From Escherichia phage vB_EcoS-95, in sequence record NC_048132.1: a stretch of 50,910 nt of DNA; one strand, written 5' to 3'. The position numbers and the translations under genes are program-made. Positions 4,374-47,900 of the stretch are shown in pieces (the first letter of the stretch is position 1; each line of letters opens with the position of its first letter). Below the pieces are notes generated by a model. It was not told the DNA's origin, searched no databases, and was given only the letters and a program-made list of their open reading frames with translations.

Positions 4374-4413
4374 CACTTTTTGTTAAAACTGGCGCGATGG
4401 ATTGCGCCATAAT
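4371..4413 (+). promoter_or_regulatory. Box promoter (box 4371-4389 overlapping stop TAG; hairpin GGCGCGATGGATTGCGCC; -10-like CATAAT 4408-4413)
   Basis: Exact 19-mer TAGCACTTTTTGTTAAAAC; fixed 18-bp gap to -10-like hexamer. Confidence 0.6.
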
Positions 4414-11491: not shown

Positions 11492-11534
11492 ATTATGCCA
11501 GGTTTTTACACCTGGCTTTTAACAAAAAGTGCTA
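11492..11534 (-). promoter_or_regulatory. Box promoter (minus; hairpin GCCAGGTGTAAAAACCTGGC; CATAAT; leader CACATCGAACAAAC)
   Basis: Box overlaps stop TAG of the methyltransferase-like gene. Confidence 0.55.
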
Positions 11535-16883: not shown

Positions 16884-16923
16884 CACTTTTTGTTAAAACG
16901 CCAGGCGCAAAGCCTGGCATAAT
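16881..16923 (+). promoter_or_regulatory. Box promoter (hairpin GCCAGGCGCAAAGCCTGGC; CATAAT; leader CATCGAAACGAG)
   Basis: Exact box overlapping stop TAG. Confidence 0.6.
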
Positions 16924-18561: not shown

Positions 18562-18603
18562 TAGCACTTTTTGTTAAAACTCAAATTTGGGGCCAGGTAT
18601 AAT
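18562..18603 (+). promoter_or_regulatory. Box promoter (hairpin GGGGCCAGG..GGCCC with TATAAT)
   Basis: Exact box overlapping stop of a small upstream ORF. Confidence 0.55.
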
Positions 18604-18633
18604 GGCCCTGCTTTCAACGAAGGAGATAAAACG

Positions 18634-20027: not shown

Positions 20028-20070
20028 TAGCACTTTTTGTTAAAACATCTCAACGGGCTTGCGGTATAGT
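20028..20070 (+). promoter_or_regulatory. Box promoter (hairpin GGGCTTGCGGTATAGTAAGCCC; -10-like TATAGT; leader CATCAACAACAAACGAGGA)
   Basis: Exact box directly after stop TAA. Confidence 0.6.
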
Positions 20071-20101
20071 AAGCCCATCAACAACAAACGAGGATTAAAT
20101 C

Positions 20102-22824: not shown

Positions 22825-22867
22825 TAGCACTTTTTGTTAAAACTTCCGCAAGGGCATTTGATAAAGT
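22825..22867 (+). promoter_or_regulatory. Box promoter (hairpin GGGCATTTGATAAAGTGCCC)
   Basis: Exact box immediately after stop TAA. Confidence 0.55.
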
Positions 22868-22899
22868 GCCCTTATTGAAGCGAAACAGAGGAAAGCGCA

Positions 22900-25477: not shown

Positions 25478-27045
25478 TGATCATATGGGAAGATTTGACG
25501 GCGGCGCAAAAGCGAGCCATTAAAGAAATCAGTGAGCATTCATTCGAAAAGATGATCAGAATCTGGTTCCAATTATTGCAGGGGCAAAAATTCCAGAGCA
25601 ACTGGCATTTTAGCTTATTGTGCAGTGAGGTAGAGAAGATCATCAATGGAGAGTCGCAGAATGTTATTTTCAACATTACGCCAGGTAGCGGTAAGACTGA
25701 GATTTTCTCAATCCACATGTCACCCTACGCGTCATTGAAAAGCCGGAAGGTGAGAAATCTTAACCTTTCGTTTAGTGATGGACTTGTCCAGCAAAACAGC
25801 AACCGGATAAAGGAGATTATTGGTTCTCCTGAGTGGCAAGAGCTATGGCCTGGAAAACTGGCAAAGGCGAGCGCTAAAGATCTGATAGTCACCGAAGGCG
25901 GCAAGGTTAAATTGCAGGTTAACTCACGTTCTATTGGCGGCCAGGTAACAGGTTTGCGTGGCGGCTATATGGATGATGGTTTTACTGGTATGCTGGTTCT
26001 TGACGATCCAGACAAGCCGGATGATATGCTTTCTAAGGTCAAGCGTGAGGCTATCCACATGCGGCTAAAAAACACAGTGCGATCGCGTCGAATGAAAGAC
26101 ACCACGCCGATTGTTATGGTGCAACAGCGACTACACGTTAATGATTCCACCTGGTTTATGCTTAATGGCGGGATGGGTGGTATTGAGTTTAAAGTTGTGA
26201 GCATTCCGGCGCTGGTTACGAAAGAATACCGCGAAACACTTCCTGATTGGTTGAAGCCTGAATTTGATCGTGATGTTCTGTCAAGTAAGCCAGTGATGAT
26301 AGATGGCGTTGCTCATTATTCATTTTGGCCTGCGAAGGAAAGCGCGGAGGAGTTGCTTGCATTGCGCAATGCAGATCCTTACACGTTCGCCAGCCAATAC
26401 CAACAGCAACCAATCGCGCTTGGCGGCAACGTGTTTAAAACAGAGTGGTTCCAGTATTACGGCAGCGGCGAAAAATGCGCACTACCAAAACCGGATCGCT
26501 TTGAATACACATTTATTACTGGAGATACCGCGCAGAAGGCCGGAGAGCTTAACGACTATTCAGTTTTTTGTTATTGGGGGATGTATAAGAATCGCGTTTA
26601 CTTCATTGATGGCATTCGCGGAAAGTGGGAAGCGCCGGATCTTGAATTAAATTTTATTGCCTTCGTTAACCAGTGCTGGAAGCGCAATAAGGAGTGTGGC
26701 AGCTTGCGACGTATCCACATTGAGGATAAGGCCAGCGGAACTGGTTTGATTCAGGGGGCCAAAAAGAAGATCCCGATTGATATAAATCCCGTTCAGCGAA
26801 GCAACGACAAGGTAACGCGAGCAATGGACGCCGCGCCAGTGATGAGGGCCGGACGTGTGGCACTGCCAGAAAATCACCCCATGCTGCCTGAGATACTGGC
26901 AGAGGTTGCAGCATTCACTTTTGATGATTCTCATCCCCATGATGATATTGTCGATAATATAGTTGATGCTGTTAACGTAGAAATGAATTTGGCAGATGAT
27001 CCGGTAGCAAGGATGAAAAAGCTGGCAGGTCTACGCAATAAATAG
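25477..27045 (+). CDS. Terminase large subunit
   Basis: Walker A-like ITPGSGKTE, Walker B MLVLDDPD; 522 aa between TerS and portal. Confidence 0.75.
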   Translation: MIIWEDLTAAQKRAIKEISEHSFEKMIRIWFQLLQGQKFQSNWHFSLLCSEVEKIINGESQNVIFNITPGSGKTEIFSIHMSPYASLKSRKVRNLNLSFSDGLVQQNSNRIKEIIGSPEWQELWPGKLAKASAKDLIVTEGGKVKLQVNSRSIGGQVTGLRGGYMDDGFTGMLVLDDPDKPDDMLSKVKREAIHMRLKNTVRSRRMKDTTPIVMVQQRLHVNDSTWFMLNGGMGGIEFKVVSIPALVTKEYRETLPDWLKPEFDRDVLSSKPVMIDGVAHYSFWPAKESAEELLALRNADPYTFASQYQQQPIALGGNVFKTEWFQYYGSGEKCALPKPDRFEYTFITGDTAQKAGELNDYSVFCYWGMYKNRVYFIDGIRGKWEAPDLELNFIAFVNQCWKRNKECGSLRRIHIEDKASGTGLIQGAKKKIPIDINPVQRSNDKVTRAMDAAPVMRAGRVALPENHPMLPEILAEVAAFTFDDSHPHDDIVDNIVDAVNVEMNLADDPVARMKKLAGLRNK

Positions 27046-27060
27046 CACTAATTGCTAAAA
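27043..27060 (+). promoter_or_regulatory. Box variant (TAGCACTAATTGCTAAAA) overlapping TerL stop
   Basis: Sequence match to box; followed by TATATAAT and a terminator hairpin rather than the usual spacer hairpin. Confidence 0.4.
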
Positions 27061-27074
27061 AGTTATATAATCAA

Positions 27075-31869: not shown

Positions 31870-31892
31870 GCTTTAACAAAAAGTGCTATCAT
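31870..31892 (+). promoter_or_regulatory. Reverse-orientation box giving an extended -10 (TGCTATCAT) with upstream TTGACG, ahead of the major capsid gene
   Basis: TTGACG-16 bp-TATCAT with TG at -15/-14; sequence is the reverse complement of the early box. Confidence 0.45.
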
Positions 31893-35620: not shown

Positions 35621-35639
35621 CTTTTAACAAAAAGTGCTA
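35621..35639 (+). promoter_or_regulatory. Reverse-orientation box giving TGCTATAAG extended -10-like element directly abutting the RBS of the tail chaperone gene
   Basis: Reverse complement of the box; AAGGAG RBS starts 1 nt after the box. Confidence 0.45.
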
Positions 35640-41573: not shown

Positions 41574-44500
41574 ATGGCTAAATATATGATAAGTGGCAGT
41601 AAAGGGGGCGGTCAAAAGCCCTACGTGCCAAAAGAGATGGAAGATAACCTGATCTCGATAAATAAGATTAAAGTTTTGCTTGCTGTATCTGATGGCGAGT
41701 GCGATCCAAATTTCACGTTGCGCGATCTTTATCTTGATGATGTTCCGGTTATTGCCAGCGATGGCACTGTTAACTACGAGGGAGTTACGGCTGAATATCG
41801 ACCAGGTACGCAGACGCAAGATTACATCCAGGGGTTTACTGACACATCAAGCGAGGTGACAGTTTCGCGAGATATTACAGCAGACAATCCTTATGTTATA
41901 TCTGTGACAAACAAAAATCTTTCTGCAATCAGAATCAAGATTCTGATGCCAGTTGGCATGAAGCAGGAGGATAACGGCGATCTTGTTGGCGTAAGGGTTC
42001 AATATGCCGTAGATATGGCTGTTGATGGCGGTTCTTATAACGAGGTTATGAGAGATGTAATTGACGGCAAGACGAGATCAGGATATGACCGCAGCAGAAG
42101 GATTGATCTTCCTAAGTTTGATGAGCGCGTTTTAATCAGGGTCAAGCGACTTACTCCAGACAGCACATCTTCAAAGGTGACTGATAAAATCAAACTGCAA
42201 AGTTACGCTGAGGTTGTGGATGCAAAATTCCGTTATCCTCTGACTGGCCTTGTATTCGTAGAATTTGACAGCGAATTGTTTCCTACGCAAATCCCTAACA
42301 TTTCTATAAAAAAGAAATGGAAGATTATTAATGTGCCAAGCAACTATGATCCAATATCTAGAGAATATCACGGGTCATGGGATGGGACTTTTAAAAAAGC
42401 GTGGTCAAATAATCCTGCTTGGGTTCTTTATGATCTGGTAACGAATCAGCGTTACGGGCTTGACCAGCGAGAGCTAGGAATACAGATCGACAAGTGGAGC
42501 TTATACGAGGCAGGCGTTTACTGCGATCAGAAAGTTCCAGACGGTAAGGGCGGTACAGAGCCTCGATACCTATGCGATGTGGTGATTCAGAATCAAGTTG
42601 AGGCTTATCAGCTAATACGTGACATTTGCTCAATCTTTCGCGGAATGAGCTTTTGGAATGGTGAGAGCTTATCAATCGTGATTGATAAGCCGCGCGATCC
42701 ATCATACGTGTTTACTAATGAAAACGTCATAAACGGTGATTTTCAGTACACAACCGCAAGCGAAAAAAGCATGTACACGCAGTGTAACGTGACGTTTGAC
42801 GACGAACAAAACATGTATCAGCAGGACGTAGAGGGGGTTTTTGACACTGAGGCGGCATTGCGATTTGGATACAATCCAACAAGCATTACAGCGATCGGGT
42901 GTACACGCAGGAGCGAAGCGAATCGTCGCGGTCGGTGGGTTTTGAAAACAAACCTTAGAAGCACTACTGTAAACTTTGCTACCGGACTAGAGGGGATGAT
43001 TCCATCAATAGGTGATGTGATTGCTATCGCTGATAATTTTCAGAGCAGCAACCTAACGTTAAACCTATCGGGCCGAGTGATGGAAGTTTCAGGATTGCAG
43101 GTTTTCGTTCCGTTTAAGGTTGATGCTCGTCCTGGTGATTTTATTATCATCAACAAGCCGGACGGCAAGCCAGTTAAGCGCACGATCTCAAAGGTTAGCG
43201 CAGACGGAAAAACCATTGAGTTAAATATTGGATTTGGTTTTGATGTTAAGCCTGACACTGTTTTTGCGATTGACCGTACTGACCTTGCGTTGCAGCAATA
43301 CGTTGTGACAACTATCAGCAAGGGTGATGACGAAAACGAGTTTACCTATTCAATCACGGCTGTGGAGTACGATCCGAACAAATACGACGAGATTGATTAT
43401 GGCGTAAACATTGATGACAGGCCTACTTCAATTGTTCAGCCTGACGTGATGGCAGTGCCGGAGAATGTTCAGATCTCATCTTATTCTCGCGTCGTGCAGG
43501 GTGTTAGCGTTGAAACTATGGTTGTTTCATGGGATAAGGTTCCTTACGCATCGCTTTATGAAATGCAGTGGCGAAAAGGTGATGGCAACTGGCTGAATAC
43601 GCCGCAGACAGCTAACAAAGAGATAGAGGTAGAAGGGATTTACTCAGGGAACTATCAAGTAAGGGTTAGATCTGTTTCTGCAAGTGGGAACACCTCCCCG
43701 TGGTCAAAGATTGCAACCGCCACCCTGACAGGTAAAGTTGGCGAGCCAGGAGCGCCGATTAATCTTACAGCTTCTGATAATGAAGTTTTTGGCATTCGTG
43801 TTAAATGGGGTATGCCGGAAGGATCAGGCGATACGGCTTACATTGAGCTTCACCAATCGCCAGACGGAACGGTTGAAAACTCAAGCCTGCTTACGCTGAT
43901 TCCATATCCTCAATATGAGTATTGGCATAGCACGTTACCAGCGGGTCAAGTTGTATGGTATAGAATCCGTAGCGTTGACAGGATCGGTAATGTTTCCGGC
44001 TGGACTGACTTTGTTCGCGGCATGGCGTCAGATGATGTTGAATCTGTTTTAGGCGACATTCTGGACAAGATTTTTGATACCGAAGCGGGTCAAGAAATCA
44101 AAGAGAACGCCATAGACAGTGCCAACAAAATCAAAGACCAGGCGCAATCAATCATCCAGAACGCATTGGCAAACGATGCTGATGTGAAATGGACGAGAGT
44201 ACAAAACGGAAAGCGCAAGGCTGAATATGGTCACGCTCTTGAGCTTATCGCCAACGAAACGGAGGCGCGAGTAACTCAAATCGAAGAGTTAAAGGCTTCA
44301 ATTGATGACGATATAGTTTCAAGTATCAAAACCGTTCAGGAAGCGATTGCCAACGAATCAGAGACGCGAGCTACTCAAGTTCAGCAGCTTGATTCTAAAT
44401 TTACGAAGGAAATAGACGGCGTAAAACGAGATACGGCTGCAAGCATTGGCGAGGTAAGGCAAACCATTACCAATGAATCAGAAGCGCGTGCGCAAGCTGT

Positions 44501-45152
44501 TCAGCAGCTTGACGCTAAGTTTACGAAAGAGATAAACGACCTTGACGAAGTGATCAAAACCGAAGTCGAGGCTAACATCTCAGAAGTTAAACAGGCGATC
44601 GCTAATGAGACAGAGGCAAGGGTTCAGGCCGACCAGTCTTTAACAGCTAAATTCGGAGACGTTGAGTCAGCACTAGCCGAAAAACTTGATTCGTGGGCTA
44701 ACGTTGATTCTGTTGGCGCTAAGTACGCTATGAAATTGGGCCTTACTTACAAGGGGCAGAAGTACAGCGCAGGAATGATCATGCAGTTGTCGCAATCTTC
44801 TCAAGGCCTGATCTCGCAAATCTTGTTCGATGCTAACAGGTTCGCGATCATGACTAGCTCTACTGGCGGTACGTTTACATTGCCGTTTGTGGTAGAAAAT
44901 AACCAGGTGTTTATCAACAGTTTGTTGGTGAAAAACGGGTCCATTACTAACGCAATGATTGGTAACGTGATTCAGTCAAATAACTTTGTTCAGAATCAGC
45001 AAGGATGGAGGCTTGATAAAAATGGTAACTTTGAGAACTACGGAACTAGAGCGGGAGAAGGAGCTACAAAATTCACTAACGAAGGATTGAAGGTGAAAGA
45101 TGCAAATGGACGATTGAGAGTTGAGATAGGGAGAATAACCGGAAGTTGGTAA
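41574..45152 (+). CDS. Tail tip / host specificity protein (lambda gpJ analogue)
   Basis: About 1190 aa after M-L-K-I; fibronectin-III-like central region; coiled-coil repeats near the C-terminus. Confidence 0.7.
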   Translation: MAKYMISGSKGGGQKPYVPKEMEDNLISINKIKVLLAVSDGECDPNFTLRDLYLDDVPVIASDGTVNYEGVTAEYRPGTQTQDYIQGFTDTSSEVTVSRDITADNPYVISVTNKNLSAIRIKILMPVGMKQEDNGDLVGVRVQYAVDMAVDGGSYNEVMRDVIDGKTRSGYDRSRRIDLPKFDERVLIRVKRLTPDSTSSKVTDKIKLQSYAEVVDAKFRYPLTGLVFVEFDSELFPTQIPNISIKKKWKIINVPSNYDPISREYHGSWDGTFKKAWSNNPAWVLYDLVTNQRYGLDQRELGIQIDKWSLYEAGVYCDQKVPDGKGGTEPRYLCDVVIQNQVEAYQLIRDICSIFRGMSFWNGESLSIVIDKPRDPSYVFTNENVINGDFQYTTASEKSMYTQCNVTFDDEQNMYQQDVEGVFDTEAALRFGYNPTSITAIGCTRRSEANRRGRWVLKTNLRSTTVNFATGLEGMIPSIGDVIAIADNFQSSNLTLNLSGRVMEVSGLQVFVPFKVDARPGDFIIINKPDGKPVKRTISKVSADGKTIELNIGFGFDVKPDTVFAIDRTDLALQQYVVTTISKGDDENEFTYSITAVEYDPNKYDEIDYGVNIDDRPTSIVQPDVMAVPENVQISSYSRVVQGVSVETMVVSWDKVPYASLYEMQWRKGDGNWLNTPQTANKEIEVEGIYSGNYQVRVRSVSASGNTSPWSKIATATLTGKVGEPGAPINLTASDNEVFGIRVKWGMPEGSGDTAYIELHQSPDGTVENSSLLTLIPYPQYEYWHSTLPAGQVVWYRIRSVDRIGNVSGWTDFVRGMASDDVESVLGDILDKIFDTEAGQEIKENAIDSANKIKDQAQSIIQNALANDADVKWTRVQNGKRKAEYGHALELIANETEARVTQIEELKASIDDDIVSSIKTVQEAIANESETRATQVQQLDSKFTKEIDGVKRDTAASIGEVRQTITNESEARAQAVQQLDAKFTKEINDLDEVIKTEVEANISEVKQAIANETEARVQADQSLTAKFGDVESALAEKLDSWANVDSVGAKYAMKLGLTYKGQKYSAGMIMQLSQSSQGLISQILFDANRFAIMTSSTGGTFTLPFVVENNQVFINSLLVKNGSITNAMIGNVIQSNNFVQNQQGWRLDKNGNFENYGTRAGEGATKFTNEGLKVKDANGRLRVEIGRITGSW

Positions 45153-45181
45153 AAAAAGGGGGCATAGCCCCCTTTAATTTT
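45151..45181. terminator. Bidirectional rho-independent terminator between convergent J and the minus-strand operon
   Basis: GGGGG-CATAG-CCCCC flanked by A7 upstream and TTTAATTTT downstream. Confidence 0.65.
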
Positions 45182-45794
45182 AATCATAGTGCGATGAATT
45201 TATAACCAAAACAGATGAAGCCGTGTAAATACCAACAGGACCAGAAGTTTGCGCAACCTGCCTAGATAAAGAATATACCCCGTTGCCATACGCGGCAGCT
45301 TGAGACTCAAATATCATGAATCCACCTAAAGACGGATTACGCACAGAGTTTAAAGCTGTTAGTGACGGCATGATGGCGCAAGGGTATCCCAAGTTAACGT
45401 CAAAAGTGATCCCGCTTACAGATACAAGTTTTGCATCTAAAGGCTTCATCTTTCCATGATAAACCATCTCACCATTAGCATTATAAAAAGCTATTCCGTG
45501 ACTACCAGGAGGAGTAACCATATTGCTAAAAGCATAAACAAATACCTCACCTTGATTGTCGGACTTTTCTATCTTTATTGCGTGCTTCCCACCATTATTA
45601 AATTGAGTAAATGCTATGTATGATTTTGATGTTAACCTTACAAAAAAGAAGCACGGTCTATTTATTGGTATAGAAGTATTAAAAACGGTTCCTGTTTTTG
45701 CTGATATTTTACCTTTATCTATAAGGTTAACAGGAGTGAAATCTGGACTTAACCACAATGATCCGTCTGGTTTTTTTATGCTCATCCCGTACAT
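45180..45794 (-). CDS. Hypothetical protein (possible receptor-binding or exclusion-related)
   Basis: 204 aa; start overlaps upstream stop; last gene of the Cor-like operon. Confidence 0.35.
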   Translation of the reverse strand: MYGMSIKKPDGSLWLSPDFTPVNLIDKGKISAKTGTVFNTSIPINRPCFFFVRLTSKSYIAFTQFNNGGKHAIKIEKSDNQGEVFVYAFSNMVTPPGSHGIAFYNANGEMVYHGKMKPLDAKLVSVSGITFDVNLGYPCAIMPSLTALNSVRNPSLGGFMIFESQAAAYGNGVYSLSRQVAQTSGPVGIYTASSVLVINSSHYD

Positions 45795-45796
45795 TA

Positions 45797-46075
45797 TTAC
45801 CCCCAAAAAGTATATATATATCTTGAGTCAGATCCAGAAAGTCCGCTCCATGTAACGGTATCACCACTTACACCTAAACTTGGAGCGCCAGGATCTCCTC
45901 CGCGCCACGAATTCATTCCAACATATATTGCTTTCAACGACTTACCTGGCGGCCTGTTTGAGTAGGTCTTACTGCCAGATGATTGAGTAAATTTATCCAA
46001 GAAAAAAACTGGAGTTAAAAGGCCAGTAACATTTCTACCTTGCTCATCATATATTGCATACCCATATTCAGCCAT
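45797..46075 (-). CDS. Hypothetical protein
   Basis: 92 aa; RBS GAGGTG; Gly/Ser-rich C-terminus. Confidence 0.35.
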   Translation of the reverse strand: MAEYGYAIYDEQGRNVTGLLTPVFFLDKFTQSSGSKTYSNRPPGKSLKAIYVGMNSWRGGDPGAPSLGVSGDTVTWSGLSGSDSRYIYTFWG

Positions 46076-46343
46076 TTTTGCACCTCAAATCAATGAATTT
46101 TCTTTCATCTTGCCAACGGTTGATAAATTTAACTTCTTTATTGTCAACGCTCAACCTGTATTGCTTTTGGCTGAATCTGTTTTCGCGGACCGCATTAATT
46201 TTAACTTCATGGAATCCGTTAACAGGGAATGTTTTAACGTTAAATTTTGCCGTGCAATCGATCTCCTTGAAGTTGCCAGTAGGCGAAGAAGAACATCCGG
46301 TCAGAGCGGCTACGGTGGCGATAACTGCGATTAATTTTTTCAT
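46068..46343 (-). CDS. Cor-like superinfection-exclusion lipoprotein candidate
   Basis: Signal peptide with lipobox LTGC (MKKLIAVIATVAALTGCSS); small size; location next to tail genes as for cor in T1/phi80-type phages. Confidence 0.4.
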   Translation of the reverse strand: MKKLIAVIATVAALTGCSSSPTGNFKEIDCTAKFNVKTFPVNGFHEVKINAVRENRFSQKQYRLSVDNKEVKFINRWQDERKFIDLRCKNG

Positions 46344-46374
46344 CTTCAATACCCCTTAGTTGTTGTTGGCTGTA

Positions 46375-46415
46375 ACTATACACGATCCGGCAAGCCGAGT
46401 TTAGCAAAAAGTGCT
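46375..46415 (-). promoter_or_regulatory. Box promoter variant (TAGCACTTTTTGCTAAAC) for the Cor-like operon
   Basis: Reverse complement of box at 46398-46415; -10-like TATAGT downstream. Confidence 0.5.
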
Positions 46416-46419
46416 ACTT

Positions 46420-46786
46420 GTTATTTTTTGTTTTTCGGTGTTATCGGATTTAAGGCGGCGTAAATTTAGCGCAAATTTTAGCCAACATAAGAACAATAAA
46501 TAATCAATAAAATAGGTATATACATATAAAATCAATAGTTTATTTATTTATGTATGTGTATTTGTTTTTTCTTGTTATCTGTGTTTCTTGTGGTTTTGGT
46601 TGTTTGTGGTGATTTTTCTTTCTGAGTATCTGTATGTGCCATCATTCATGTGTATGTATATAATCCGGCGTACCTTAGAGAACAAGGGAACAAGAAAAAT
46701 AACACATATTAATCATTAACTTACGCGTCAAATTTGTTTTATTGCCATCTGAGAACGTTTAGAAAACAGAAAAAACAAAACAACTA
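46420..46786. promoter_or_regulatory. Second AT-rich, T/G-skewed non-coding region, paralogous to 15840-15930
   Basis: TTATTTATTTATGTATGTGTATTTGTTTTTTCTTGTTATCTGTGTTTCTTGTGGTTTTGGTTGTTTGTGGTG resembles the tract in the 15.8-kb region; AATCA repeats; no ORF. Confidence 0.4.
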
Positions 46787-46814
46787 TTGACTAAATCAAC
46801 CAAATGGCTACAAT
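46787..46814 (+). promoter_or_regulatory. Sigma70-like promoter (TTGACT-16 bp-TACAAT) for the recombination operon
   Basis: Hexamers at 46787-46792 and 46809-46814, about 30 bp upstream of exonuclease ATG. Confidence 0.55.
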
Positions 46815-46844
46815 GCACACACAAAGCAACCAGGAGCATTAAAG

Positions 46845-47900
46845 ATGAGTGATTTTAACGCCTACACTAGCGAAGAAATGAGCAATGAGCTTTATCATGA
46901 TCCTAACGCGTGGACGGCTGAATACGTCAGCGGTTCCAGCCTGGCGGAGATTTACAGCACTTGCCCGGCGTACTGGAAGTACAAACCTCGCCAGGAAACT
47001 AAGGCACTTGTTTTCGGTACGCAGTCGCATACCAATTTTGAAAGCAATGAGTTATTCGAAAAAACATATCGCCGCGCACCGTCGCAGGATGATTTTAAAG
47101 ATCTGATCACAAGTCAAACGGCGTTGGCCTCAAAGCTGAAATCTTTTGGCCTGAAAGGTACAACGGGTAAGCAATACCCCGAATTGCTGGAAATGCTGTA
47201 CAAGTGCGGTGAGGATCTCAATGTATGGTGGCTTATCGAAATGATGGCAGAATGCCAGGCAGCAGCGGACGGCGTGCAGCTAATCGACGCGAAAGATTAT
47301 GATGCCTGTGTAGCGATGCGGCGCGTACTTGAGGCAATACCTGAGCATAATGCTTGCATGAATAGCCCAACCGCGCAGCGTGAAATGTCAATATTCGGGA
47401 TCATCAATGGCGTAAAAGTTAAAGTGCGCCTTGATCACGTTGACGTAAACAAGGATGTAAAGGCCACAATCATTAACGGTTACGACGAAAAAGGCCGACC
47501 GATTTATGAAGAAGTCATCTATCCAGAAGCTGTGATTATCACTGACTATAAAACAACGGTTAGCGCAAATCCGGTTGACTTCCAGCGCCTGGCTTACAAT
47601 CACGGCTATTATCTCAAAATGGCTTTGCAGCATGATTTATTTAAAAAGGCGTATCCAGACGAGGAAAGGCCAGTAATTGTGAGATTGCTTGCTCAAGAGA
47701 AGAAAGAGCCTTACTTGCCGCTCGCATTCCGCATGAACATTGAGCAATTGAAGATCGGTCGCATCCAGTACATGAGCGTGATCAACAAGTTCAACGTTTG
47801 CCAACAGTTAGATGAATGGCCTTCGTATGCAAACGGGCAACCAGAAATTGATCTTGATACTCCTGATTGGGTGCGCGCTCAATTCAGGCAGTATCTATGA
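46845..47900 (+). CDS. Recombination exonuclease (PD-(D/E)XK, RecE/lambda-Exo-like)
   Basis: IITDYKTT and YxxxQ nuclease motifs; located upstream of ERF. Confidence 0.5.
   Translation: MSDFNAYTSEEMSNELYHDPNAWTAEYVSGSSLAEIYSTCPAYWKYKPRQETKALVFGTQSHTNFESNELFEKTYRRAPSQDDFKDLITSQTALASKLKSFGLKGTTGKQYPELLEMLYKCGEDLNVWWLIEMMAECQAAADGVQLIDAKDYDACVAMRRVLEAIPEHNACMNSPTAQREMSIFGIINGVKVKVRLDHVDVNKDVKATIINGYDEKGRPIYEEVIYPEAVIITDYKTTVSANPVDFQRLAYNHGYYLKMALQHDLFKKAYPDEERPVIVRLLAQEKKEPYLPLAFRMNIEQLKIGRIQYMSVINKFNVCQQLDEWPSYANGQPEIDLDTPDWVRAQFRQYL

Follow-up and report, generated by a model that had tools for sequence, protein, structure and literature searches.

The window, that is, the whole stretch of DNA that we analysed, comprises 50,910 nt of Escherichia phage vB_EcoS-95 (NC_048132.1), a Warwickvirus among the T1-like Drexlerviridae. 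A preliminary description had placed in it a minus-strand operon of three genes (46343 to 46068, 91 aa; 46075 to 45797, 92 aa; 45794 to 45180, 204 aa) convergent with a J-like gene. Indeed, the three genes lie at these positions, and the J-like gene is on the plus strand and ends at 45152. The features of the locus are as follows.

41574 to 45152, plus strand: J-like central tail fibre (tail tip) gene, likely start ATG 41574 (MAKYMISG...).
45155 to 46293, unstranded: exchangeable receptor-specificity cassette; it spans the terminator, the genes for the 204-aa and 92-aa proteins and the stretch that codes for the mature lipoprotein.
45155 to 45175, unstranded: predicted bidirectional intrinsic terminator (AAAGGGGGC-ATA-GCCCCCTTT), at which both the J transcript and that of the leftward operon would end.
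45180 to 45794, minus strand: 204-aa predicted receptor-binding protein (RBP), BtuB allele (phrog_425, "hand-like" tip protein).
45797 to 46075, minus strand: 92-aa tip protein of the "Ig-like" kind (phrog_557), a putative small beta-sandwich that would serve the RBP as partner or adaptor.
46068 to 46343, minus strand: 91-aa lipoprotein, predicted superinfection-exclusion factor (signal peptide codons 1 to 16, lipobox LTGC).
46352 to 46357, minus strand: Shine-Dalgarno sequence (AAGGGG) that precedes the lipoprotein ATG by 8 nt.
46375 to 46380, minus strand: TATAGT, a -10-like hexamer that follows the box after 17 nt.
46398 to 46415, minus strand: the box, which belongs to the T1/TLS-type direct repeats (aaATAGCACnnnTTGnTAAAA) and lies at about -48 to -31 from the predicted transcription start.

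The stop codon of the lipoprotein gene and the start of the 92-aa gene overlap by 8 nt (ATGGCTGA), 2 nt separate the stop codon of the 92-aa gene from the ATG of the 204-aa gene, and a Shine-Dalgarno-like G-run precedes each of the three. At the protein level, the number of phage records with a homologue ranges from about 80 for the lipoprotein to about 290 for the 204-aa protein, and we therefore consider the three ORFs to be real genes. Translationally coupled, they form one leftward transcription unit, which runs from a predicted box-type promoter to a bidirectional terminator. The terminator is a GC hairpin with A/T runs on both sides; the minus-strand RNA folds with -16.7 kcal/mol (z = -2.6) and is followed by a U-run. 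This hairpin could end both the J and the operon transcripts. Rfam and repeat scans of positions 45000 to 47000 and of the 430-bp upstream gap returned nothing meaningful.

The repeated box that the preliminary description had assigned to the operon is present at 46415 to 46398 (AGCACTTTTTGCTAAACT). Allowing up to 3 mismatches, we counted 13 copies where 0.09 would be expected, which is far beyond chance; a looser TLS-type pattern gave 15 copies. About 10 of the other boxes are followed after 17 to 18 nt by CATAAT, TATAAT or TATAGT, with an ATG 53 to 63 nt past the end of the box. The operon box aagtAGCACTTTTTGCTAAACT fits ATAGCACnnnTTGnTAAA, has the same orientation as the downstream gene and starts 72 nt before the ATG. 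Consensus and orientation relative to transcription are the same in the repeat of TLS and T1, which lies about 72 to 76 nt before start codons (PMC11447400). The box is also conserved upstream of the lipoprotein gene of phage FritzSarasin and the cor gene of phage PeterMerian. A 21-nt direct repeat has been published for TLS, and whether it functions as an UP-like element, an activator site or a "stoperator" is undecided (PMC11447400). From the sequence we infer that the box may have a promoter role with early timing, although two of its copies lie antisense within the late region.

The ORF of the J-like gene opens at TTG 41523, upstream of the likely start. Its conserved distal tip consists of the last ~80 codons (44904 to 45152) and ends in ...LKVKDANGRLRVEIGRITGSW. 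Over its C-terminal 299 aa, the protein shares 52% identity with gp33 of T1 and 42% with the fibre of JenP2, and the terminal motif is common to the needle/fibre protein of Stx phages.

We then considered the relatives of this locus. At this locus, vB_EcoS-95 is 99.4% identical in nucleotide sequence to phage JLBYU10, its nearest relative, for which the published receptor data say only that it is not FhuA-dependent. Nucleotide identity to FritzSarasin/Bas04 is ~87%, and the cassette proteins are 85 to 97% identical in amino acid sequence to their counterparts in FritzSarasin/Bas04 and JK16 (86%, 93% and 93 to 97% for the three). In these two phages all three genes recur with order and orientation unchanged; both belong to the same genus and show allelic differences only. 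Both depend on BtuB, as shown genetically (Maffei et al. 2021, PMC8594841; preprint 10.64898/2026.04.02.716166); in its supplementary tables, the preprint names the Bas04 RBP by an in-house CDS number only. PTXU06, a BtuB-dependent Dhillonvirus, carries a lipoprotein 53% identical to the 91-aa lipoprotein. PeterMerian is a Warwickvirus that uses FhuA. In a blastn comparison with it, identity is 80% up to 45154 and 84% from 46294 on, with no match between. The swapped block thus begins at 45155, just past the stop codon of the J-like central fibre gene, and reaches to the lipobox codon. As a whole, the locus is very probably explained best as the hypervariable cassette for receptor specificity that is known from the region downstream of gpJ, in its BtuB allele, and the predicted receptor of vB_EcoS-95 is most likely BtuB, the vitamin B12 transporter. 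This kind of cassette and the tie of the allele to BtuB have already been published, and in this respect the system is an ordinary one.

Within the cassette, the 204-aa protein is all-beta and matches phrog_425 over residues 1 to 204 (E = 5e-51), the PHROG to which T1 gp31 also belongs (E = 9e-68); a direct BLASTP comparison of the two proteins gave E = 2e-4 at ~23% identity. Searching Pfam with the 204-aa and 92-aa proteins, or PDB sequences with the 204-aa profile, produced no match. When the model of the 204-aa protein was submitted to Foldseek, however, the top match was a solved receptor-bound RBP, RBP_Oeko (PDB 9rpt), at a TM score of ~0.3, and the segment of RBP_Oeko that aligns with it is ordered on LptD in the solved Oekolampad complex. 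This link is structural only: hhalign of the 204-aa or the 92-aa family against the sequence of the Oekolampad RBP was insignificant. From the receptor correlation and the modelled fold, we infer that the 204-aa protein would be the BtuB-binding RBP. As for its place in the virion, the evidence in this family comes from the literature and from one homologue, gp54 of phi24B (204 aa), which is in the virion proteome, with additional density at the needle tip.

The 92-aa protein matches phrog_557 (E = 6e-21), which also holds T1 gp32. Its AF2 model has a pLDDT of 69.6, and a fold search returned only generic beta-sandwich matches. Homologues of the 92-aa and 204-aa proteins are adjacent in every locus examined (T1, ES18, mEp043, KarlBarth, PeterMerian, Stx phages and JenP2). 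Furthermore, single-chain relatives of 309 to 325 aa have a homologue of the 92-aa family as their N-terminal ~100 aa (hhalign 96.6%, E = 6e-10). The 204-aa-type half of these fused proteins aligned at 99.6%, with cross-controls below 1%. In Vid5 and Sabo, the fused gene is the next one after J. Since the two proteins form a single polypeptide, in the same order, in other phages, we would regard them as one physical unit.

The similarity between the 92-aa and 204-aa proteins themselves is slight. The preliminary description had them begin similarly, a claim that shrank to a short motif, YG-x-x-I...G; their N-termini gave E = 0.24 with hhalign. Against an internal motif of the 204-aa protein, the 92-aa protein gave E = 0.002 to 0.003 over 15 columns; neither value is significant. 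We rejected the idea of a module repeated three times, once as the 92-aa protein and once in each half of the 204-aa protein, with only this 15-residue motif aligning. Equally unsupported was the assignment of the ~320-aa fused proteins to the Oekolampad-type RBP family (16 to 21% identity, poor alignment); on their sequences, they are a separate fused branch apart from the Oekolampad-type RBPs.

A rival assignment would make the 92-aa protein the one that touches the receptor. Matusiak et al. found that the small Ig-like proteins resemble the receptor-binding domain of lambda J and give stable trimer models on the spike, but in the same study the AF2-multimer models favoured capping of the spike by the larger, 204-aa-type protein. 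Residues ~50 to 70 of the 92-aa family vary between two conserved ends, but the C-terminal half of the 204-aa family is also highly variable, as expected for a specificity determinant. If the 92-aa protein contacted the receptor and the 204-aa protein were an assembly factor, a cap or a second-step trigger, the position of the 92-like module in the fusions would be awkward, for it is N-terminal, the usual attachment end. With the matching part of RBP_Oeko ordered on LptD as well, we regard this assignment as improbable. The 204-aa protein remains our candidate for the RBP, and the 92-aa protein is probably an adaptor between it and the fibre tip, although it may instead be a chaperone or a co-RBP.

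A still less likely reading takes all three proteins as a membrane superinfection-exclusion system, with the 92-aa and 204-aa proteins as envelope partners and not virion proteins. It draws on the names in PHROG and GenBank, "outer membrane protein" for the 92-aa protein and "membrane associated protein" for the 204-aa protein, but neither of the two contains a signal peptide or TM segment (maximum KD19 values, 0.59 and 1.23), on which ground we rejected them as membrane proteins, and the predicted membrane affinity of their homologues is low. The KanT1 paper assumes an exclusion-related role from the association with cor; in Stx phages and JenP2, however, the pair is present without any lipoprotein. 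In vB_EcoS-95, the two genes are co-transcribed with the lipoprotein gene and not with J, whereas in T1, ES18, mEp043 and Stx phages the pair comes immediately after the fibre gene and has the orientation of the latter. The fit of the 204-aa fold to a solved RBP and the phi24B homologue in the virion proteome also speak against envelope partners, and we think this reading very unlikely.

The first gene of the operon encodes a small lipoprotein of the outer-membrane type with the signal peptide MKKLIAVIATVAALTG|C. Its lipobox, L-T-G-C, had already been described; it occupies residues 14 to 17, with the codon of Cys17 at 46295 to 46293; Ser is at +2, and the mature part of 75 aa has a domain bracketed by Cys30 and Cys88. 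Pfam returned only sub-threshold matches, to LPAM_1 (16.4 bits, under the cut-off of 20) and DUF6491. The preliminary description had called this protein Cor-like. Its position and lipobox agree with that, and over its full length it matches the Cor PHROG, phrog_1119 (E = 6e-8), and a Cor alignment (hhalign 98%, E = 2e-13). The similarity is mostly in the signal peptide, however. The mature part compared with Cor reached an hhalign probability of 6% (P = 0.006), yet is collinear from Cys to Cys; the mature domain alone had no PHROG match, and BLASTP against T1 Cor aligned residues 1 to 34 only. Its place in the Cor family is therefore only tentative.

Homologues of the lipoprotein were found only in siphophages with the same RBP allele, PTXU06 among them. 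The gene sits in the RBP operon, inside the swapped cassette, and co-varies with the RBP allele. Exclusion lipoproteins at a comparable position are Cor in T1, Llp in T5 and Rtp45 in Rtp, the last proven by cryo-EM; Llp blocks FhuA, Rtp45 blocks LptDE, and both mechanisms are solved. By analogy, the lipoprotein of vB_EcoS-95 is most likely a receptor-blocking exclusion factor in infected cells, and the receptor that it is predicted to exclude is BtuB, not FhuA. That it has nothing to do with exclusion and is a different kind of small lipoprotein, for instance an o-spanin-like component of the lysis machinery or a receptor-unrelated moron, is hardly credible: its mature domain has no significant family match and it has weak PHROG matches to Rz-like spanins (E = 0.04 to 0.2), but these are confined to the signal peptide (residues 1 to 20/40), for which reason we rejected the o-spanin reading, the spanin of T1-like phages sits in the lysis cassette, and both the co-variation with the RBP allele and the position and operon order fit the proven superinfection-exclusion loci.

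These elements suggest the following mechanism. The 204-aa protein, a predicted cytoplasmic, all-beta virion protein, would cap the distal end of the trimeric J-like fibre, with the 92-aa putative beta-sandwich probably serving as the N-terminal adaptor from the fibre tip to the RBP. By docking on the extracellular side of BtuB, which is a TonB-dependent transporter, the 204-aa protein would then trigger irreversible adsorption. In the infected cell, the lipoprotein would, after export and lipidation at Cys17, reach the outer membrane on its inner leaflet, where it may bind the periplasmic face of the receptor and prevent binding of the RBP, as T5 Llp does on FhuA and Rtp45 on LptDE. Such a block would exclude superinfecting phages and spare progeny from loss on debris. 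The cassette itself may be exchanged by recombination in its conserved flanks, the end of J and the segment of promoter, 5′UTR and signal peptide; this would therefore give a lipoprotein with a Cor-like signal peptide and a mature domain that is barely so.

We compared the locus with known systems. The FhuA cor cassette (gp32-gp31-cor in T1; also N15, HK022, phi80, ES18 and mEp043) shares phrog_557, phrog_425 and phrog_1119, also follows J and has cor on the strand opposite to J. In T1-type loci, however, the tip-protein genes are on the J strand and only cor is leftward, whereas all three genes are leftward in vB_EcoS-95; the receptor is FhuA instead of the predicted BtuB, and similarity between the mature lipoprotein of vB_EcoS-95 and the Cor of that cassette is not detectable. 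The LptD module of Oekolampad and Rtp is likewise a leftward operon, lipoprotein then RBP, convergent with J, and periplasmic exclusion by its lipoprotein, Rtp45, has been shown structurally. In Oekolampad, however, one chain of 321 aa forms the RBP, a 92-aa gene beside it is absent and sequence similarity is not detectable; LptD, unlike BtuB, is not TonB-dependent. T5 (pb5 and Llp, on FhuA) and BF23 (RBP and lipoprotein, on BtuB) follow the same logic: a monomeric RBP on a trimeric central fibre uses a TonB-dependent transporter, and a small lipoprotein blocks this transporter on its periplasmic side. Their RBP fold is unrelated, however, and the genes lie elsewhere, upstream of the terminase genes. 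In phi24B and other Stx phages, the gp55-gp54 pair is homologous to the two proteins at 46 to 53% identity and comes right behind the needle/fibre gene, in a podovirus that has lom next and no lipoprotein. BamA has been proposed as the receptor, and this pair is the probable BamA-binding one.

A recent study called the FhuA-, BtuB- and LptD-specific tip proteins of small siphophages unrelated families. Tentatively, and with somewhat more doubt than confidence, we put forward a joint reading in which these tip proteins and the Stx-podophage pair would form one structural superfamily. The 92-aa and 204-aa proteins would be two halves of an ancient portable "plug-in" adhesin, split or fused, docking on the conserved fibre terminus ...DxNGRLxVxIGR. 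The same reading would make the exclusion lipoproteins diverged relatives of Cor with mature domains swapped at the lipobox codon, and the promoter/signal-peptide segment the recombination linker for these swaps.

What is added here is incremental: the match of the 204-aa fold to a solved RBP, the split/fused relation of the tip proteins, the exact boundaries of the swap, and the finding that "Cor-likeness" is mostly a matter of the signal peptide. These observations serve cassette-swap design. The cassette would determine both the outer-membrane protein that serves the phage as receptor and the one that is shut off during infection, and it therefore offers a handle for predicting or re-engineering host range.

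The preliminary description had placed three leftward ORFs, convergent with the J-like tail-tip gene, behind a copy of a repeated box. All were present exactly as claimed and are tightly packed:

46415-46398, minus strand: box AGCACTTTTTGCTAAACT, one of 13 copies in the window, where chance would give 0.09
46343-46068, minus strand: lipoprotein ORF, 91 aa
46075-45797, minus strand: 92-aa ORF
45794-45180, minus strand: 204-aa ORF
45155-45175: GC hairpin with A and T runs on either side, able to end both convergent transcripts

The lipoprotein stop and the 92-aa start overlap by 8 nt (ATGGCTGA), 2 nt separate the 92-aa stop from the 204-aa start, and every one of the three starts has a G-rich ribosome-binding site. 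The plus-strand J-like gene ends at 45152. Since numerous homologues of each of the three proteins occur in other phages, we take these to be real genes. An AT-rich non-coding gap of 430 bp (46416-46844) lies between the leftward cassette and the rightward recE-like gene; T1 has a gap of ~530 bp at a similar place. The gap contains sigma-70-like sites at 46636-46664 and 46787-46814 (plus strand), and Rfam and repeat scans of it returned no Rfam match and low-complexity repeats only.

The first product had been described as a Cor-like lipoprotein with a lipobox. Indeed, it carries a lipoprotein signal of the textbook type, MKKLIAVIATVAALTG and then the lipobox C, with Ser at +2. The likeness to Cor stood only in part. 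At full length, the protein matched the Cor PHROG (E = 6e-8), and hhalign of its family against the Cor family gave 98% probability. However, the PHROG match was lost when the signal peptide was removed, and the mature lipoprotein reached 6% against Cor in hhalign (P = 0.006), in a collinear alignment that pairs the two cysteines flanking the mature domain of either protein. BLASTP with T1 Cor aligned residues 1-34 of the lipoprotein only. PeterMerian, a Warwickvirus that uses FhuA, carries a true cor at this locus. Its box, -10 element, 5′UTR and signal-peptide codons are nearly identical to those of the window, and the similarity ends at the lipobox cysteine codon (46294), which is why the Cor likeness is carried mostly by the signal peptide. 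On the other side, the two phages stay similar as far as the J stop codon (45154). This makes 45155-46293 the exchanged unit, which holds the terminator, the genes for both tip proteins and the mature part of the lipoprotein. "Cor-like" is thus established for position and architecture, but not established for the mature sequence. In phages Oekolampad and Rtp, the exclusion lipoprotein comes first and the receptor-binding protein (RBP) next, convergent with J, which is the position and operon order found here. This strong functional analogy makes the first product a putative exclusion lipoprotein. Structurally proven periplasmic blockers are Rtp45, acting on LptDE, and Llp, acting on FhuA, and the KanT1 authors pointed out Cor-like proteins in BtuB-using Tempevirinae.

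The two downstream proteins had been proposed as receptor-binding or exclusion partners. We found no Pfam family for the 204-aa protein, and it matched phrog_425 (E = 5e-51). T1 gp31 belongs to the same PHROG; direct BLASTP between the two gave 23% identity over 155 residues (E = 2e-4). Neither a signal peptide nor a hydrophobic segment was found in the 204-aa protein, so there is no basis for the name it inherited, "membrane associated protein." An AlphaFold2 model built with 17 homologues is all-beta and confident (pLDDT 88.9, pTM 0.83), with low confidence in the first ~20 residues only. Sequence methods (a PDB profile search and hhalign) missed the relation of this protein to the LptD-binding RBP of Oekolampad (PDB 9rpt). 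In the KanT1 paper, T1-type homologues had no structural hits, perhaps because 9rpt was released only on 2025-12-10. Among Stx phages, homologues share about 46% identity with the window protein; one of them, phi24B gp54 (204 aa), was detected in the virion proteome, and the phi24B needle tip shows extra density. Taken together, the phrog_425 match, the lack of a membrane signal, the all-beta model and the virion homologue make the 204-aa protein the most likely RBP.

The 92-aa protein matched phrog_557 (E = 6e-21), which also includes T1 gp32. A phrog_557 gene always adjoins a phrog_425 gene, in T1, PeterMerian, KarlBarth, ES18, mEp043, Stx podophages and JenP2. From siphophages to Stx podophages, the N-terminal half and last ~10 residues of the 92-aa family are nearly invariant, and residues ~50-70 vary. 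Its model has moderate confidence and generic beta-sandwich matches only. When 1.8 billion representatives were searched with a profile of the 204-aa family, 129 relatives emerged; about eleven of these have 309-325 aa, and their 204-like domain begins at residue ~95-115. In hhalign, the N-terminal ~100 residues of these long relatives matched the 92-aa family (96.6%, E = 6e-10) and their C-terminal part matched the 204-aa family (99.6%, E = 4e-24), against <1% for both cross-controls. These natural fusions indicate that the two proteins function as a single unit in which the 92-aa module lies on the N-terminal side. Published AF2-multimer models put both on a "knife-like" spike end, with the larger one favoured as the cap; the fibre end was not resolved in the T1 cryo-EM study. 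The two downstream proteins are best read as a bipartite tail-tip RBP rather than as exclusion partners.

Fused chains of 318-326 aa occur in Pantoea phage Vid5 (gp23, L010 2501-3481) and Pectobacterium phage Sabo (L011 2492-3448), directly 3′ of the J-like gene in both. In Sabo, a convergent 73-aa ORF 3′ of the fused gene may be an exclusion lipoprotein candidate. Phage ArgO145 (L003 5717-6618) and about 200 Stx-converting phage records have homologues of both tip proteins that are 46-53% identical. In the short-tailed Stx phages, the phrog_557/phrog_425 pair lies directly 3′ of the needle/fibre gene and is followed by lom, without a lipoprotein; a 2026 preprint proposed the pair as the BamA-binding RBP of phi24B. 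The similar starts noted for the two window proteins (MAEYGYAIYDEQG and MYGMSIKKPDGS) do share a short motif, but the similarity is not statistically significant. The motif recurs within the 204-aa protein (HGIAFYNANGEMV), and both the J protein (LKVKDANGRLRVEIGRI) and the fibre protein of Stx phages (IEVYDQNGRLAVRIGRL) finish in a hairpin-like motif that resembles it. To read this as a docking code is speculative.

The window box is the 21-nt direct repeat of TLS, aaATAGCACnnnTTGnTAAAA, which has 21 copies ~76 nt 5′ of start codons, with similar repeats in T1 and Rtp (PMC11447400). Most window copies are followed by CATAAT, TATAAT or TATAGT after 17-18 nt and by ATG after 53-63 nt; the cassette copy has TATAGT at 17 nt and ATG at 54 nt. 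This box sits at about -48 to -31, and no proper -35 hexamer was found at sigma-70 spacing, suggesting a UP-like element or activator/appropriator site rather than a standard -35. Genes 3′ of box copies are small early-region genes and, in T1, also those for helicase and Dam methylase. It is reasonable to predict box-driven expression of the cassette in the class of the replication genes. The two virion tip proteins would then share a transcript with the exclusion factor, as in Oekolampad, whereas T1 transcribes its tip proteins with J.

Many box promoters have a GC-rich inverted repeat between box and -10 or overlapping the -10 (for example TGGCGC-N8-GCGCCA and GCCAGGC-N5-GCCTGGC), at 4390-4409, 11497-11515, 16900-16918, 18590-18610, 20055-20075 and 22850-22872; the cassette box has only a short CGGC-TT-GCCG. 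Two antisense copies lie in the plus-strand structural module just 3′ of the major capsid and major tail protein genes (31870-31887 and 35621-35638, minus strand), and neither has a good -10 at the distance seen elsewhere. The corresponding positions in T1 also have minus-strand copies (L002 15067-15084 and 18831-18848). Antisense transcription could start at such copies, or they could be bound by proteins in a different role. One variant, AGCACTAATTGCTAAAAA (27044-27061, plus strand), lies in the interval from the large terminase gene to the portal gene; 3′ of it comes a terminator-like hairpin (GGCTGGATTTTTCCAGCCTTTTTT) instead of a -10 element.

Three GenBank records of 49,946 bp labelled Campylobacter phages, MG065649 (A143), MG065657 (C4) and MG065680 (A113), carry this T1-like cassette, with proteins 53-73% identical. 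These supposed Campylobacter jejuni phages look like T1-like coliphage genomes and may be contaminants or bear the wrong host label.

The locus is 99.4% identical to that of JLBYU10, about 99% to the BEK7/BEC3 group and ~87% to FritzSarasin (Bas04), tonnikala and swan01 (Drexlerviridae, Tempevirinae, genus Warwickvirus). The surrounding gene order is that of T1: J, the locus, recE-like, erf-like and ssb genes, then the lateral fibre. In small siphophages, allelic "bona fide RBP loci" directly 3′ of gpJ track receptor use and were proposed to carry RBPs with cognate exclusion proteins (Maffei et al., PMC8594841). Genome-wide screens confirm these loci, with families tied to FhuA, BtuB, LptD or YncD (2026 preprint, 10.64898/2026.04.02.716166). 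FritzSarasin, the closest characterised relative, has the identical three-gene set and arrangement and uses BtuB; its top RB-TnSeq hits are btuB, dcrB and sdaC, with tonB absent. These hits suggest that DNA entry in this group of phages depends on factors in the periplasm or inner membrane. BtuB is also used by JK16 and other Warwickviruses carrying the same allele, JLBYU10 is reported not to depend on FhuA, and the lipoprotein is 53% identical to that of the BtuB-dependent Dhillonvirus PTXU06. Because phages with a homologous cassette use BtuB, we assign the window cassette to the BtuB allele, with BtuB the receptor predicted from homology. The original interpretation is supported, with refinements on the receptor, the downstream proteins and the term "Cor-like." The locus, nearly identical to those of published genomes, is a member of a described system: a gpJ-adjacent receptor-specificity cassette with its cognate exclusion lipoprotein.
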